Part shown: positions 15,472 to 43,972 of the stretch, one piece after another | Position numbering within the stretch: the first letter of the stretch is position 1 | How the letters are laid out: every line of letters starts with the position of its first letter | Sequence record: PV357171.2 | DNA length: 64,000 nt | Source of the DNA: a phage | Direction: 5' to 3' (one strand) | Translations under genes and position numbers: made by a program | Notes under the pieces: model-generated | Told to the model about the DNA's origin: nothing | Databases searched by the model: none | Seen by the model: the letters and a program-made list of their open reading frames with translations, nothing else

Positions 15472-15498
15472 ACTTATATAAATTGATAGGAGGATTAA

Positions 15499-37659: not shown

Positions 37660-38142
37660 ATGGCAAATGATGTATTAGTACCAGATCTTATGTCCCCTGA
37701 AGGGATGGATGTAATTGAAGCATATTTACAGTGTGGGAGTGATGTGCCTTCTGCCGCACGTAGTCTTGGAATGTCCGAAATTGCTTTTAGAGATATTATG
37801 AATCGTAGTGAAGTTAAGAACTACTTAAATGATATTTTTATGGAGAGTGGTTTCCGTAACAGAGATCGTTTATTTGGTGTTCTGGATGAAGTTATCAAGC
37901 GTAAACTAGAGGAACTAGAAGAAACTGGCATGGGTTCTGACCAAGATATTATGGATATTCTCTGGAAAGCACATAAAATGAAAATGGAAGAAATGAAAAT
38001 GATGGTAGAACTGGAGAAAGTTAAGGCAGCAGCCCGTACTCCAGCTAACCAGACCAACATCCAGAATAATATTATTGCTGGAGCTGGGGATCAAAACTAC
38101 ATGGACTTAATTACTTCCCTAGCTACTGGAGGTAAGAAGTAA
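37660..38142 (+). CDS. putative terminase small subunit
   Basis: 160 aa immediately upstream of and overlapping the large terminase gene; call is by position only. Confidence 0.4.
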
Positions 38143-39458
38143 TGGAAGTATCAAGACCTTACGTTAATACAGTAGATGTTATTGATTTCGGAATAGATAA
38201 ACGTTTCTTTCGTCTACCTGTTTCGGGAATACTAGCACAAGAAGGTATTACACCTAATGGTCCTCAAATAGCGATTATTAATGCTCTAGAGGATCCTAGA
38301 CATCGTTTTGTAACGGCGTGTGTATCACGCCGTGTAGGTAAATCCTTCATCGCATATACTCTTGGGTTCCTAAAATTGCTGGAACCTAATGTGAAGGTGT
38401 TAGTAGTTGCTCCTAACTATTCACTGGCCAACATCGGATGGTCTCAGATTCGTGGTCTTATTAAAAAATATGGCCTACAAACTGAACGTGAGAACGCTAA
38501 AGATAAGGAAATTGAGTTAGCTAATGGTTCTCTGTTTAAACTAGCTTCCGCTGCTCAGGCTGACTCCGCAGTTGGACGTTCATATGATTTTATCATCTTT
38601 GACGAGGCGGCAATTTCCGATGTGGGTGGTGATGCCTTCAGGGTTCAGCTGCGTCCTACCCTAGATAAACCTAATTCTAAGGCTCTATTTATTTCCACCC
38701 CTCGTGGAGGTAACTGGTTTAAAGAGTTTTACGCCTACGGATTTGATGATACGTTGCCTAACTGGGTATCTATTCATGGTACATATCGTGATAACCCTCG
38801 TGCTGACCTGAATGATATAGAAGAAGCACGTCGTACGGTTAGTAAAAACTACTTCCGCCAGGAATATGAAGCTGACTTCTCTGTATTTGAAGGTCAGATT
38901 TTTGATACTTTCAATGCTATTGACCATGTTAAAGACCTTAAGGGTATGCGTCATTTCTTTAAAGATGATGAAGCATTCGAAACGTTGCTTGGTATCGACG
39001 TTGGTTATCGTGATCCTACAGCAGTTCTTACTATTAAGTATCATTACGATACGGATACTTACTATGTATTAGAAGAGTACCAGCAGGCGGAGAAAACTAC
39101 AGCTCAGCATGCTGCTTACATTCAGCACTGTATAGATCGTTATAAAGTTGATCGTATTTTTGTTGACTCCGCGGCAGCTCAGTTCCGTCAAGACTTAGCT
39201 TATGAGCATGAAATTGCATCAGCTCCAGCTAAAAAATCTGTCCTAGATGGCCTAGCATGCCTGCAAGCACTGTTCCAACAGGGTAAGATTATTGTAGATG
39301 CCTCATGCTCCTCCTTAATTCATGCACTGCAGAACTATAAGTGGGATTTCCAAGAAGGTGAAGAAAAATTATCCCGTGAAAAACCACGTCATGATGCTAA
39401 CTCTCACCTTTGTGATGCGCTGCGCTACGGAATTTACTCTATTTCCCGTGGTAAATAA
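38142..39458 (+). CDS. terminase large subunit
   Basis: 438 aa; Walker A SRRVGKS and Walker B DFIIFDEAA, C-terminal nuclease-like region. Confidence 0.8.
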   Translation: MEVSRPYVNTVDVIDFGIDKRFFRLPVSGILAQEGITPNGPQIAIINALEDPRHRFVTACVSRRVGKSFIAYTLGFLKLLEPNVKVLVVAPNYSLANIGWSQIRGLIKKYGLQTERENAKDKEIELANGSLFKLASAAQADSAVGRSYDFIIFDEAAISDVGGDAFRVQLRPTLDKPNSKALFISTPRGGNWFKEFYAYGFDDTLPNWVSIHGTYRDNPRADLNDIEEARRTVSKNYFRQEYEADFSVFEGQIFDTFNAIDHVKDLKGMRHFFKDDEAFETLLGIDVGYRDPTAVLTIKYHYDTDTYYVLEEYQQAEKTTAQHAAYIQHCIDRYKVDRIFVDSAAAQFRQDLAYEHEIASAPAKKSVLDGLACLQALFQQGKIIVDASCSSLIHALQNYKWDFQEGEEKLSREKPRHDANSHLCDALRYGIYSISRGK

Positions 39459-39467
39459 ATAAGTATA

Positions 39468-39501
39468 GGATGGGATACTACTCAGTTGGTATCCCATTCC
39501 T
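39468..39501 (+). terminator. candidate terminator hairpin
   Basis: GGATGGGATAC...GTATCCCATTCC inverted repeat followed by A/T-rich sequence. Confidence 0.35.
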
Positions 39502-39629
39502 GCATTTTAAAATCCCCTTTACAAATTCGATATGATTATGTATACTATATTCATTGATCGGGAGAACTTCTCCCATAATAGAACGTAAACAAGAAAAATT
39601 AATGCTCTACATGAGGTGTAGGAGATTCT

Positions 39630-40268
39630 ATGGGTCGACAAAAGCTAACAATAAAAGATATAAATACTAGATTAGCTGATCGTGGAATCCAAATTGTCGG
39701 TGAATATGTAAACCAGCGTACAAAAACAGTATTTAGATGCCAGAGAGCACACGTTTGGGAAGCAACACCACATTCTGTACTTCATATGAGGAGAGGTTGT
39801 CCACACTGCTCCAATAATACAATATCGTTAGATGAAGTTAGTAACAGAATATCTAATATAGGGTATACTCTGTTAAGCAGCTATACTAATGCTAAAACAA
39901 AACTACATCTACGTTGCAATAATGGGCATGACTGTTTCATTACCCTAGATGGATTGACTCAAGGTAAAAGATGTCCTTATTGTTCTCTTAAATGGGAAAA
40001 TGGCGGATTCCTCTATATCATGTCCTCCTGCAGAGGTACTAAAGTAGGCATAAGCTTATACCCTGAGAAGCGGCTGAACGAGGTTAAAAGAGAATCTGGA
40101 TTTTCTGACATATACTTGTTCACCGTGTATTATCTGCCGGATAGAGAGACTGCTTTAGATTTAGAGAAGGAAGTTCACAGAAAATATTATAATAAAAACT
40201 GTGGGTTTTCTAATTTTACAGGAAGTACGGAATTTTTTAATGTTGCTCCTGAAGATGCTTTCAAATAG
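39630..40268 (+). CDS. putative homing endonuclease with zinc-ribbon N-terminus and T5orf172/GIY-YIG-like C-terminus
   Basis: 212 aa; CPHCS and CPYCS pairs, then GGFLYIMSS...GTKVGIS...EKRL resembling the T5orf172 pattern. Confidence 0.45.
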   Translation: MGRQKLTIKDINTRLADRGIQIVGEYVNQRTKTVFRCQRAHVWEATPHSVLHMRRGCPHCSNNTISLDEVSNRISNIGYTLLSSYTNAKTKLHLRCNNGHDCFITLDGLTQGKRCPYCSLKWENGGFLYIMSSCRGTKVGISLYPEKRLNEVKRESGFSDIYLFTVYYLPDRETALDLEKEVHRKYYNKNCGFSNFTGSTEFFNVAPEDAFK

Positions 40269-40494
40269 GGAAGCATTCTACAAGAAATATGAGCATGAGT
40301 TAGTTAGGGACGTGGTAACATTGTGCCAGCACCATCACCAATTATTACATAAGGTTTACACAAAAGAACCTCCTTTATTTTCTGCTAATAAGCAAAAAGT
40401 GTGGGTTCAAAAGCAGAAAGACAAATTACAGAATCCTCAAGAAAAGACACAAGTCAAGACTGAAACAAAATCAGGATTCGCAAGGTTCTTATAA
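40201..40494 (+). CDS. hypothetical protein (uncertain; overlaps neighbours)
   Basis: 97-aa track ORF overlapping the 3' end of 39630..40268 and abutting the portal start. Confidence 0.25.
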   Translation: MGFLILQEVRNFLMLLLKMLSNREAFYKKYEHELVRDVVTLCQHHHQLLHKVYTKEPPLFSANKQKVWVQKQKDKLQNPQEKTQVKTETKSGFARFL

Positions 40495-41594
40495 TGGGTT
40501 TTAAAAGCTGGATTACTGAAAAGCTAAATCCGGGTCAACGTATTATAAGAGACATGGAACCAGTTAGTCATCGCACTAACCGTAAGCCTTTTACCACTGG
40601 ACAAGCCTACAGTAAAATTGAGATTCTCAATAGAACTGCTAATATGGTTATAGATAGTGCGGCGGAGTGTTCTTATACTACTCTCTTAAATGTACGACCT
40701 AATCCATTCATGGATATAAGCACATTCCGTAGACTTGTAGTCACTGACCTACTTTTTGAAGGTTGTGCATACATCTATTGGGATGGCACATCGCTTTACC
40801 ATGTCCCTGCTGCACTGATGCAAGTAGAGGCAGATGCCAATAAGTTTATCAAAAAATTTATATTTAATAACCAGATAGACTATCGCGTAGATGAGATTAT
40901 CTTTATAAAAGATAACAGTTACGTGTGTGGCACAAATTCTCAAATTTCTGGACAATCTCGCGTTGCTACTGTTATTGACTCTCTTGAGAAGCGTTCTAAG
41001 ATGCTTAACTTTAAAGAGAAATTCCTCGATAACGGAACTGTGATTGGTCTTATTCTTGAGACGGATGAAATCCTGAACAAGAAATTGCGTGAGCGTAAAC
41101 AAGAAGAATTACAACTAGATTATAATCCTAGTACTGGTCAGTCCTCTGTCCTGATAGACTTTAAGGAAGACATCGAAGGATTTAATAAATCCATCTGTCT
41201 AGCCTTTGGTGTTCCGCAAGTGCTACTTGATGGCGGTAATAATGCGAACATTCGACCAAACATCGAATTGTTCTACTATATGACTATCATTCCTATGCTG
41301 AACAAGCTGACTAGTTCTCTTACTTTCTTTTTTGGTTATAAGATTACTCCTAATACTAAGGAAGTAGCTGCATTAACACCAGATAAAGAAGCTGAGGCTA
41401 AACATTTAACCTCATTGGTTAATAATGGTATTATGACTGGTAACGAGGCTCGTTTAGAGCTGAACCTTGAACCTTTAGATGATGAGCAGATGAATAAGAT
41501 TCGTATTCCTGCTAACGTTGCTGGTTCTGCAACAGGTGTATCTGGTCAAGAAGGTGGTAGACCTCAAGGTTCCACCGAGGGAGATAAAGAATGA
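40494..41594 (+). CDS. portal protein
   Basis: 366 aa between terminase and protease/capsid genes; true start may lie upstream. Confidence 0.6.
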   Translation: MGFKSWITEKLNPGQRIIRDMEPVSHRTNRKPFTTGQAYSKIEILNRTANMVIDSAAECSYTTLLNVRPNPFMDISTFRRLVVTDLLFEGCAYIYWDGTSLYHVPAALMQVEADANKFIKKFIFNNQIDYRVDEIIFIKDNSYVCGTNSQISGQSRVATVIDSLEKRSKMLNFKEKFLDNGTVIGLILETDEILNKKLRERKQEELQLDYNPSTGQSSVLIDFKEDIEGFNKSICLAFGVPQVLLDGGNNANIRPNIELFYYMTIIPMLNKLTSSLTFFFGYKITPNTKEVAALTPDKEAEAKHLTSLVNNGIMTGNEARLELNLEPLDDEQMNKIRIPANVAGSATGVSGQEGGRPQGSTEGDKE

Positions 41595-42085
41595 TTGATT
41601 ATAATGGTCTAAAGACCATTTTTGGTGAAAAACTGCCAGAATCTCATATCTTCTTTGCTACGGTTGCTGCGCATAAATATGTTCCTAGCTATGCTTTTCT
41701 GCGTAGAGAACTAGGGCTTTCATCTGCGCATACTAACCGTAAAGTATGGAAGAAATTTGTAGAGGCTTATGGTGAAGCAGTTCCTCCGGCCCCACCGGCC
41801 CCACCATTAACTCTTTCTAAAGATTTAACTGCTAGCATGTCAGTTGAAGAGGGAGCAGCATTAACACTTTCTGTTACTGCAACTGGTGGTACTGGTCCAT
41901 ATACTTATGCATGGACTAAAGATGGTTCTCCTATTCCGGATGCTTCAGGAGCTACCTATACTAAACCTACAGCAGCAGCTGAGGATGCCGGCTCTTATAA
42001 AGTAACTGTAACAGATAGTAAGCAAGTAAGTAAGGATTCTACTGCATGTGCTGTGACAGTTAATCCTACTGTTCCTGGAGGCTAA
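41591..42085 (+). CDS. head decoration protein with Ig-like domain (pb10-like)
   Basis: 164 aa; Pro-rich linker then Ig-like C-terminal domain; position as for T5 pb10. Confidence 0.5.
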   Translation: MIDYNGLKTIFGEKLPESHIFFATVAAHKYVPSYAFLRRELGLSSAHTNRKVWKKFVEAYGEAVPPAPPAPPLTLSKDLTASMSVEEGAALTLSVTATGGTGPYTYAWTKDGSPIPDASGATYTKPTAAAEDAGSYKVTVTDSKQVSKDSTACAVTVNPTVPGG

Positions 42086-42088
42086 TAA

Positions 42089-42721
42089 ATGACACAAGCT
42101 GCTATTGACTATAACAAGTTAAAATCAGCACCCGTTCATTTAGATGCTTATATTAAATCTATTGATAGCGAATCCAAAGAGGGCGTTGTAAAAATCCGTG
42201 GATTCGCTAATACAATTAGTAAAGATCGCGCTGGTGATGTAATTCCTGCTTCTGCGTGGAAAACATCTAATGCACTTGCTAACTATATGAAAAACCCGAT
42301 TATTCTTTTCGGACACGATCATCGTCGTCCAATCGGCAAGTGTATTGATCTTAACCCTACTGAAATGGGTCTCGAAATCGAATGCGAGATCTATGAAAGT
42401 TCTGACCCGGCTATCTTTTCTCTAATTAAAAACGGTGTACTGAAAACTTTTAGTATCGGATTCCGCTGCCTAGATGCAGAGTGGGATGAAGCTACTGATA
42501 TATTTATTATTAAAGATTTAGAACTATACGAAGTTTCGGTAGTTTCTGTACCTTGTAATCAGGACTCAACGTTCAATCTCGCTAAGAGTATGAATGGTCA
42601 TGATTATACTGAATGGCGTAAATCTTTTACTGCAATAAGTTCTAAAGCTGTCCCAGCTCAAGAACGTAATCTTTCTGAACTAGAAAAACTTGCGATAGCT
42701 TTAGGCTACGTTAAAGAATAA
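42089..42721 (+). CDS. prohead maturation protease (HK97 family)
   Basis: 210 aa directly upstream of the capsid gene; conserved His/Ser-containing segments. Confidence 0.65.
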   Translation: MTQAAIDYNKLKSAPVHLDAYIKSIDSESKEGVVKIRGFANTISKDRAGDVIPASAWKTSNALANYMKNPIILFGHDHRRPIGKCIDLNPTEMGLEIECEIYESSDPAIFSLIKNGVLKTFSIGFRCLDAEWDEATDIFIIKDLELYEVSVVSVPCNQDSTFNLAKSMNGHDYTEWRKSFTAISSKAVPAQERNLSELEKLAIALGYVKE

Positions 42722-42738
42722 CGGAGAATTATTTAAAA

Positions 42739-43296
42739 ATGACTATTGATATTAATAAGCTGAAAGAAGAACTTGGTCTGGGTGATCTGGCTAAATCTCT
42801 GGAAGGTCTGACCGCTGCTCAGAAAGCTCAGGAAGCTGAACGTATGCGTAAAGAGCAGGAAGAAAAAGAACTGGCTCGTATGAATGACTTGGTTTCTAAA
42901 GCAGTTGGCGAAGATCGTCAGAAACTGGAACAAGCTCTGGAACTGGTTAAGTCCCTGGATGAAAAATCTAAGAAGAGCGCAGAACTGTTTGCACAGACTG
43001 TAGAAAAGCAGCAGGAAACTATTGTTGGTCTCCAGGACGAAATCAAATCTCTGCTGGCAGCTCGTGAAGGGCGTTCCTTCGTCGGTGATAGTGTGGCTAA
43101 AGCACTGTACGGTACTCAAGAAAACTTTGAAGACGAAGTGGAGAAACTGGTTCTTCTGTCCTACGTGATGGAAAAAGGTGTATTTGATACCGAACATGGT
43201 CAGAGACACTTGAAAGCTGTAAACCAGTCTTCTTCTGTAGAAGTTTCTAGTGAAAGCTATGAAACTATTTTCTCCCAGCGTATCATCCGTGACTGA
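42739..43296 (+). CDS. major capsid protein precursor, N-terminal part (scaffolding delta domain and start of N-arm)
   Basis: 185 aa coiled-coil-rich segment ending ...FSQRIIRD then stop; the frame continues in 43250..43972. Confidence 0.6.
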   Translation: MTIDINKLKEELGLGDLAKSLEGLTAAQKAQEAERMRKEQEEKELARMNDLVSKAVGEDRQKLEQALELVKSLDEKSKKSAELFAQTVEKQQETIVGLQDEIKSLLAAREGRSFVGDSVAKALYGTQENFEDEVEKLVLLSYVMEKGVFDTEHGQRHLKAVNQSSSVEVSSESYETIFSQRIIRD

Positions 43297-43972
43297 GGTT
43301 AAAGGTGCTCTGACTGAAATCCACTTCAGTACTTACAAACTGGCTGCTAAGTCCTTCATTACTGATGAAACTGAAGAAGATGCAATCTTCTCCCTGCTGC
43401 CGCTGCTGCGTAAACGTCTGATTGAAGCACACGCTGTTTCTATCGAAGAAGCGTTTATGACTGGTGATGGTACTGGTAAACCTAAAGGTCTATTGACTCT
43501 TGCTAGCGAAGATGGTGCTAAAGTTACTACTGAAGCTAAAGCTGATGGTTCTGTTCTGGTAACTGCTAAGACTATCTCTAAACTGCGTCGTAAACTGGGC
43601 CGTCATGGTTTGAAACTGTCCAAACTGGTACTGATTGTATCTATGGATGCTTACTACGATCTGCTGGAAGATGAAGAATGGCAGGATGTTGCTCAAGTTG
43701 GTAATGATGCTGTTAAACTGCAGGGTCAGGTTGGTCGTATTTATGGTCTGCCGGTTGTAGTTTCTGAATACTTCCCAGCTAAAGCGGTTGATAAAGAGTT
43801 CGCAGTTATTGTTTATAAAGATAACTTCGTAATGCCACGTCAGCGTGCTGTTACTGTTGAACGTGAGCGTCAAGCTGGTAAACAGCGTGATGCATACTAC
43901 GTTACTCAGCGTGTTAACCTGCAACGTTACTTTAGTAATGGCGTTGTATCTGGTGCTTACGCTGCATCTTAA
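43250..43972 (+). CDS. major capsid protein, HK97-fold C-terminal part (other frame)
   Basis: 240 aa; ...EEDAIFSLL...IEEAFMTGDG... pattern typical of HK97-fold capsid proteins. Confidence 0.65.
   Translation: MKAMKLFSPSVSSVTEVKGALTEIHFSTYKLAAKSFITDETEEDAIFSLLPLLRKRLIEAHAVSIEEAFMTGDGTGKPKGLLTLASEDGAKVTTEAKADGSVLVTAKTISKLRRKLGRHGLKLSKLVLIVSMDAYYDLLEDEEWQDVAQVGNDAVKLQGQVGRIYGLPVVVSEYFPAKAVDKEFAVIVYKDNFVMPRQRAVTVERERQAGKQRDAYYVTQRVNLQRYFSNGVVSGAYAAS

Follow-up and report, generated by a model that had tools for sequence, protein, structure and literature searches.

The open reading frame (ORF) at positions 39,630–40,268 of the window (i.e., the whole analysed stretch of 64,000 nucleotides of phage DNA, record PV357171.2) is very probably a free-standing homing endonuclease gene of the T5orf172 class, orthologous to gene T5.154 of phage T5. 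This ORF is a variable insertion in T5-like phages. The earlier note, made from the letters alone, had proposed a homing-endonuclease-type insertion, and this is supported by presence or absence of the gene behind a common left edge, by decayed remnants and by a linked block downstream. The gene itself is already known: T5 and dozens of its relatives have it annotated, and a description of its class and of the preference of that class for terminase neighbourhoods appeared in 2023. Its discovery value is small, and it is real and ordinary apart from odd deletions. What the locus offers is a clean set of sites that in nature are occupied, empty or decayed, together with a sharply bounded linked block of about 300 nt in the gene for a nicking enzyme of solved structure.

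The endonuclease gene and its domains

The window comes from a T5-like phage (Tequintavirus), with 97.9% identity to its best match, Escherichia phage KS_S14, and 95.6% to T5; over the 4 kb around the endonuclease ORF, about 190 T5-like phages are 95–98% identical to it. Its gene order is that of T5, in which the small terminase gene is followed by those for the large terminase (T5.155), an 'endonuclease' (T5.154), T5.153, the portal (T5.152), the decoration protein, the protease and the major head protein. All genes and other stranded features described here lie on the plus strand. The upstream neighbour of the insertion site is the large terminase subunit gene terL (38,142–39,458; 438 aa; Pfam Terminase_6N and Terminase_6C, PHROG 2), whose product is 100% identical to many T5-like counterparts. 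Just 3' of terL lies a terminator-like hairpin (39,468–39,499; a stem of 13 pairs, then the T-run CTGCATTTTA), within 96 bp that the alignment found common to T5-like relatives (441 records). A sigma-70-like promoter match (TTTACA-17 nt-TATACT at 39,518–39,546, agreeing at 10 of 12 positions) stands immediately 5' of the insertion point. This element is common to occupied and empty sites in the alignment, and it would drive sciA (T5.153) in phages with an empty site and the endonuclease gene in carriers.

The ORF runs from an ATG at 39,630 to a TAG at 40,266–40,268 and encodes 212 aa. A canonical Shine-Dalgarno sequence (AGGAG, 39,620–39,624) is found 5 nt 5' of the start codon. The leader showed no folding significantly better than that of shuffled sequences (z = -0.83), which gave no support to the idea of a hairpin masking this ribosome-binding site.

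The two CxxC pairs of the protein (CPHC, residues 57–60, and CPYC, residues 115–118) are each preceded by a C-x3-H (C37/H41 and C96/H100), and each falls within one copy of an internally repeated module of about 55 residues. Pfam matches were judged against the curated gathering cut-offs. The first module (residues 8–62; 39,651–39,815) matches the treble-clef zinc finger DUF4379 over residues 29–62 (31.5 bits; cut-off, 24.5) and the second (residues 66–120; 39,825–39,989) matches CapR over residues 78–119 (33.4 bits; cut-off, 24.2). Each has four predicted zinc ligands (C37, H41, C57 and C60 in the first; C96, H100, C115 and C118 in the second), and all eight are invariant in aligned homologs down to 38% identity.

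These fingers are followed by a nuclease domain (residues 126–210; 40,005–40,259) that matches T5orf172 (Pfam PF10544, GIY-YIG clan) at 29.7 bits against a cut-off of 20, and the sister model MUG113 at 36.4 bits against 22.3; the intact ortholog scores 34.4 and 35.9 bits, respectively. The profile search for GIY-YIG and T5orf172 that the earlier note had called for thus bore out its reading of a zinc-finger protein with a putative T5orf172 endonuclease domain. The protein also matches PHROG 681, 'endonuclease' (E = 2.4e-54). Residues G126, Y129, K138, G140, R148, E179, H183 and E201 are invariant in homologs down to 38% identity and are all present in the window copy. Among them are the residues of a GIY-YIG-like motif, with Y129 in strand 1, the K-x-G of K138 and G140 in strand 2, R148 in helix 1 and E201 (within TEFF) as the distal glutamate. 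By analogy with the description of the T5orf172 family (PMC10448857), these residues would have a catalytic role.

An AlphaFold model of residues 121–212 has a beta-beta-alpha-beta-alpha core (pLDDT 85.5, pTM 0.77). When this model was compared with the PDB by Foldseek, the sole probable match was 1zg2, at a probability of 0.92 but weak by its other scores (E = 0.09, TM 0.45). This entry (UPF0213) we take to be a small GIY-YIG-type protein. The full-length model had no significant match in the PDB, and sequence comparison of the ORF with the PDB returned spurious ankyrin-like matches to the stretch 'LHLRCNNGH' only. The NCBIfam profiles likewise gave a sub-threshold zinc-ribbon match only.

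Over residues 1–209 the window protein is 93–96% identical to orthologs of 224 aa in T5, KS_S14, IrisVonRoten, AKFV33, 3sent1 and others, which are annotated in T5-like phages as 'endonuclease', 'putative homing endonuclease' or 'T5orf172 domain-containing protein'. Searches of phage records with tblastn showed that other T5-like phages have paralogs of 34–38% identity elsewhere in their genomes, and identified homologs in phages of Klebsiella, Vibrio, Campylobacter and Staphylococcus; no paralog was found within the window. In the literature collection searched, no paper on T5.154 or T5p150 was found.

Deletions between positions 40,256 and 43,295

A stretch of 238 bp that every compared relative has is missing from the window at 40,256/40,258; position 40,257 holds a single unmatched G, which makes the net loss 237 nt. 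The deletion removes the last 15 codons and the stop codon of the endonuclease gene together with codons 1–67 of sciA. As a result the last 15 residues of the endonuclease are replaced by three: the window copy ends in ...APED-AFK, the AFK codons and the stop being made by the junction, and relatives end in ...APEDIVIFLSSFGLEDYGH. Because the lost C-terminal part includes an 'FL..FG.E' element that is conserved in homologs down to 49% identity, this copy of the endonuclease may be impaired, if the sequence is correct.

The second gene affected, T5.153, encodes the T5 nicking endonuclease; the name sciA is taken from the annotation of phage DT57C. The SciA protein of KS_S14 aligns nearly residue for residue with PDB chains 9qgv and 9qgx ('Nicking endonuclease'; E about 1e-95). 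The literature collection searched held nothing relevant on the structure of the T5 nicking enzyme. In the window only a 3' remnant of sciA is left (40,258–40,494; codons 68–145 and the stop codon, by alignment and PHROG 3497), and a full-length HNH nicking endonuclease is not encoded. The remnant is without the N-terminal CxxC and the ELHHYH segment, whose HH belongs to the active site and which carries the histidine replaced by Q or A in the crystallised chains. As sequenced, it cannot be an active nickase.

The same junction explains the ORF of 97 aa (40,201–40,494) that the earlier note saw overlapping the endonuclease gene. The ORF exists as described; codons 1–19 read the endonuclease gene in another frame, and residues 20–97 match residues 68–145 of SciA at 97% identity. 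With a GTG start and no Shine-Dalgarno sequence, it was rejected as a gene and is an out-of-frame fusion created by the 238-bp deletion, not a companion gene. No record in the phage collection spans the deletion junction in one piece, and the 30-mer across it is absent from IMG/VR.

The start of the portal gene (40,494–41,594; assigned by Pfam and PHROG) was also said to lack a clear Shine-Dalgarno sequence and perhaps to have been disturbed by the insertion. The first part holds, with only a weak AAGG 9–12 nt upstream of the ATG, and the second does not. Aligned carriers, non-carriers and remnants hardly differ in the 60 nt surrounding the portal ATG, and in all compared relatives the ATG overlaps the sciA stop codon (TAATG). 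Since the start is the same in all compared groups, with and without the insert, the weak Shine-Dalgarno sequence is the normal state. The overlapping stop and start suggest that translation of the portal gene is coupled to that of sciA. If the 238-bp deletion is real, the upstream translation needed for such coupling would be lost, and this would be due to the deletion and not to the endonuclease insertion. To read a companion gene and a disturbed portal start into this sequence is thus mistaken, and both misreadings go back to a deletion unique among the compared records.

What is abnormal in the portal gene itself is a pair of internal in-frame deletions unrelated to the insertion, of 60 bp at 40,679/40,680 and 57 bp at 41,154/41,155. 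The portal protein has 366 aa in the window and 403–405 aa in relatives (405 aa in KS_S14). A further deletion of 143 bp at 43,294/43,295 shifts the frame of the major capsid gene and splits it into ORFs at 42,739–43,296 and 43,250–43,972. The genes broken relative to KS_S14 all lie within 40,256–43,295.

We consider it somewhat more probable than otherwise that errors of assembly or sequence in the source record, and not biology, produced the odd 3' end of the endonuclease ORF, the 97-aa ORF and the shortened portal gene. All four deletions (238, 60, 57 and 143 bp) are clean, fall within this region and are absent from about 440 relatives. The junctions have no microhomology longer than 3 nt, and a search for a shared motif or hairpin found none. 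The exact truncated proteins of 212 and 366 aa are absent from an index of 153 billion genes. One deletion frameshifts the essential major capsid gene, and a phage with such a gene should be non-viable. A role of the CTAG or TCTAGA present in the deleted segments was rejected as a cause, CTAG being common genome-wide (4.5 per kb).

The observations that fit this explanation less well center on Salmonella phage SP3 (MG387042), which is the only phage record to span the two portal junctions in one piece; no phage record spans the capsid junction in this way. SP3 has deletions at the same four places, of slightly different lengths, with the portal pair agreeing within 1 nt on alignment coordinates. 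SP3 is without the endonuclease gene, its identity to the window in this region is only about 97%, and the same four places in two independent sequences are odd for random error. On the other hand, the SP3 record is labelled 'partial genome', and its own sciA, portal and capsid ORFs are broken by its deletions. Against error there is also the fact that the portal deletions of the window are in frame, and the loss of sciA would be tolerable if nick-less T5 mutants are viable. A sequencing or assembly artefact is probably the cause of the deletions, although it does not account for the coincidence of positions with SP3, the one loose end of this analysis. The deletions break essential head genes, and the ORF oddities at 40,256–43,295 should not be taken as biology without a check of the reads.

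Occupied, empty and decayed sites

We searched phage records by blastn with positions 39,459–40,256 as query, the endonuclease ORF included, and counted as carriers those records that hold at least 80% of it. The 96 bp after terL are shared by 441 T5-like records, 74 of which are carriers, so that the gene is present in about one T5-like phage in six. In a spread sample of the remainder, most records match only these first 96 bp. The insert has a sharp left edge after ...TATACTATATTCAT at 39,554, with 39,554/39,555 as the point of divergence, and this junction is identical among the compared carriers. In Lindwurm and oselot the site is empty, and ...TATACTATATTCAT is followed directly by ACAGTTGAGGAGAACACT and the ATG of sciA; the layout is terL, 114 nt, sciA and portal. 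Alignment with these two empty sites and the spacing from terL to portal delimit the part of the insert retained in the window to 39,555–40,256. The insert of intact carriers has about 770 nt and reaches the sciA start codon. There the endonuclease gene overlaps the start of sciA by 11 nt, and as the sciA stop overlaps the portal start, the three genes probably form one coupled unit. At its 5' edge lies a perfect palindrome of 15 bp, GGGAGAACTTCTCCC (39,560–39,574), which in the alignment is also retained in Kenya-K42, where the rest of the cassette is lost. The earlier note had placed the insertion between terminase and portal genes. It does lie within that interval, but the actual junction is that of terL and sciA, not directly beside the portal gene.

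Among 42 IMG/VR loci recovered with terL, the distance from terL to portal fell into classes of 1275–1276 nt (occupied), 555 nt (empty) and 958–959 nt (remnants). Thirty of these loci have a terL 89–100% identical to that of the window, and comprise 8 occupied sites, 18 empty sites, 2 remnants, one site holding a homolog of 53% identity and one with a spacing of 677 nt (L039). All 17 intact empty loci have a spacing of 555–556 nt. The class of 958–959 nt consists of decayed remnants (DT57C and the IMG/VR loci L015 and L024), in which only residues 1–48 of the endonuclease are recognisable. In DT57C the start codon has changed from ATG to ACG and residues 2–48 only can be recognised. Homologs of 53–54% identity occupy the same site in the more distant relatives L031, P0002 and Klebsiella phage pKMKP103; the homolog of 53% identity belongs to a lineage with 89% terL identity. 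In relatives with a terL of 59–71% identity, terL is followed by sciA and portal and the endonuclease gene is absent. The synteny comparison thus recovered relatives with and without the insert. The genomes are collinear and differ by presence or absence at one defined site, as is characteristic of homing endonuclease genes. The opposite outcome, an ORF conserved at this site in all relatives and having no endonuclease domain match, was not observed.

Carriage of the gene is linked to its downstream flank. We aligned 10 carriers, 19 non-carriers and 3 remnants and observed that the first 300 nt or so of sciA are only 63–82% identical between carriers and non-carriers and 91–99% identical within each group. 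No such difference exists in terL or the 96-bp spacer, where members of the two groups are as similar to each other as to members of their own group, and from about codon 100 of sciA through the portal gene carriers and non-carriers are again undifferentiated. This indicates that carriage is uncoupled from backbone relatedness. The remnants have the carrier-type sciA allele, and the CxxC and His motifs are retained in both alleles. What survives of the block in the window spans 40,258–40,354, as delimited by identity in 60-nt windows, which makes its right edge approximate. Such co-inheritance of a flanking marker is what co-conversion or target-site immunity would be expected to produce; the block is compatible with co-conversion and no proof of it, and could instead be an old recombination module. 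Within the endonuclease gene, identity among carriers (92–97%) does not exceed that of their terL and thus gives no sign of a very recent sweep.

These patterns would be explained by homing. A long DNA target is presumably recognised by the tandem pair of treble-clef zinc-finger modules and presumably cut by the T5orf172 domain. During mixed infection, the enzyme would cut T5-like genomes that have no endonuclease gene, either at the empty site or close to it; the likeliest place is the first 300 nt or so of the non-carrier sciA allele. Recombinational repair from the carrier genome would then copy the cassette along with the carrier sciA 5' allele. The carrier allele perhaps escapes cutting and, if so, this would be why the two alleles stay distinct. 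With time, copies would decay and vanish. Against homing stand the weak GIY-YIG fold match, the missing 'FL..FG.E' of the window copy, the lack of a recent-sweep signature and the alternative reading of the linked block as an old recombination module.

Quite unlikely, in our assessment, is that the gene is a domesticated derivative that no longer homes and acts either as a regulator of the packaging and head operon, like CapR, or as a nuclease against competitors or satellites, like ICP1 Odn. Its zinc-finger modules do match the homology domain of CapR, a repressor derived from the same endonuclease family, and the gene stands directly behind the promoter-like element and the 15-bp palindrome. 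In intact carriers it overlaps sciA, as the sciA stop overlaps the portal start. Carriers also retain the protein at 87–99% identity. However, all the nuclease motif residues are conserved, which a pure regulator would be free to lose, the gene is absent from about five in six relatives, pseudogenised copies exist, and the asymmetric linked block is what co-conversion would yield.

We judge very unlikely a further pair of readings. In the stronger of them, the four deletions (at 40,256, 40,679, 41,154 and 43,294) are real and recurrent and not artefacts, as the places shared with SP3 would suggest and the frameshifted capsid gene would not. If recurrent, they could point to a site-specific process acting on the sciA-portal-capsid module (e.g., imprecise repair of nuclease-induced breaks, or defective genomes that persist with the aid of helpers). 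The milder version, included in the same assessment, holds that the endonuclease gene drives the spread of a distinct nicking-enzyme allele, so that carriage of the gene would decide which allele a T5-like phage has.

Also very unlikely is an immobile gene ancestral to T5-like phages and deleted in most lineages. The remnants do show that loss occurs, and the homolog of 53–54% identity at the same site in distant relatives implies an old site association. But terL and portal do not set carriers apart from non-carriers, so that recombination has altered carriage repeatedly. The two empty sites compared at single-base level have one clean junction and no varied deletion scars, the intact empty IMG/VR loci are uniform in spacing, and in the still more distant relatives terL is followed by sciA and portal without the gene.

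Comparison with known systems

The closest counterparts of the window gene are T5.154 itself (YP_006982, 'endonuclease'), bas32_0003 of IrisVonRoten ('putative homing endonuclease') and orf155 of AKFV33, which share its locus, domains and start context. The RefSeq version of T5.154 is longer (277 aa) by use of an upstream in-frame start; in the window a stop codon closes that extension. The T5 nicking endonuclease is the identity of the 97-aa ORF, with the N-terminal 67 residues missing, and not that of the main ORF.

Homing endonuclease genes with a T5orf172 domain and repeated zinc fingers of the CapR, DUF723 or DUF4397 type were described by Barth, Dunham and Seed in 2023 (PMC10448857). According to that study, they are abundant in T5-like phages, their commonest neighbourhood is the terminase (35% of neighbourhoods), they sit at boundaries of genetic exchange, and frameshifts or deletions in them are frequent. 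Members of this class (including gp165 and gp174 of phage ICP1) share the repeated zinc fingers and the C-terminal T5orf172 domain with the window protein, and the window gene is likewise adjacent to the terminase gene, at the edge of a recombination block and represented by decayed alleles. Its homologs in Vibrio phages are distant, at less than 30% identity. Judging from its sequence, the window gene fits the description of Barth et al. in every tested respect.

The satellite-encoded capsid repressor CapR of PLE, the Vibrio cholerae phage satellite, has a CapR-type zinc-finger domain in common with the window protein. CapR is a transcriptional repressor derived from the T5orf172 endonuclease family (PMC10448857), whereas the window protein retains the whole T5orf172 motif set.

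The free-standing GIY-YIG endonucleases SegA-G of phage T4 (e.g., SegG, with co-conversion of gene 32 markers) resemble the window gene as intergenic, free-standing genes beside an essential or conserved gene whose flanking markers are co-inherited, and the two would work in a similar way. SegA-G are classical GIY-YIG enzymes with a C-terminal DNA-binding domain, whereas the window protein belongs to a different subfamily, with a T5orf172 domain and N-terminal zinc fingers. Homing of the T5orf172 genes of ICP1 lacks experimental verification according to the authors of the 2023 study (PMC10448857), and T5.154 is a convenient candidate with which to demonstrate by experiment, for the first time, that a T5orf172 enzyme homes.

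Deletions in the portal and major capsid genes

The portal gene of the window carries two in-frame deletions, one of 60 bp at 40679/40680 and one of 57 bp at 41154/41155, and its protein has 366 aa, as compared with 405 aa in the best-matching phage, KS_S14, and 403-405 aa in relatives. These two deletions were absent from approximately 440 relatives, and both were found in Salmonella phage SP3, at positions that differ from those in the window by at most 1 nt in alignment coordinates. In SP3, they break the reading frame. The major capsid gene, which encodes a protein of 458 aa in relatives, has lost 143 bp at 43294/43295, and the resulting frameshift splits it into two ORFs (42739-43296 and 43250-43972). 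The same stretch of this gene is affected by a shorter deletion of about 71 nt in SP3. Capsids should not be produced by the genome of the window as given. We also observed an additional gene annotated as endonuclease in SP3 (NC_048001, 8069-8641), located between the major capsid and head-tail adaptor genes. The head module of this T5-like phage thus provides a further example of a variable nuclease insertion.

Variable content of the terL-sciA gap

A third state of the insertion site between terL and the nicking endonuclease gene sciA was observed in Salmonella phage Kenya-K42 (3001-3262). In this phage, the cassette is retained over its initial ~47 nt, a segment that contains the palindrome GGGAGAACTTCTCCC. 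The next ~100 nt are either unrelated to the cassette or decayed, and the site is accompanied by a third allele of the sciA 5' end (83% protein identity). Among distant relatives, represented by an IMG/VR contig with a 60% identical terL (L040, 3829-5236), three ORFs of 92, 283, and 97 aa occupy the gap when ORFs of at least 70 aa are counted. Their presence suggests that the gap may be a general insertion hotspot of which endonuclease genes are not the sole occupants.

In the T5 RefSeq genome (NC_005859, 2971-3804), T5.154 is annotated as a protein of 277 aa that starts 12 nt past terL, with the note "single transmembrane domain". The upstream frame is opened in T5 by a 1-nt difference in the leader. 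Since the window and most other records have a 224-aa version of the gene with an AGGAG-ATG start, the longer annotation is probably over-extended.

A cassette difference in the early region

KS_S14 has a clean 411-bp cassette that is missing from the window at 15493/15494. It consists of one small gene with a ribosome-binding site on either side. Its absence looks like ordinary gene-cassette mosaicism of the early region and, as such, appears unlike the deletions at 40-43 kb, which are intragenic.
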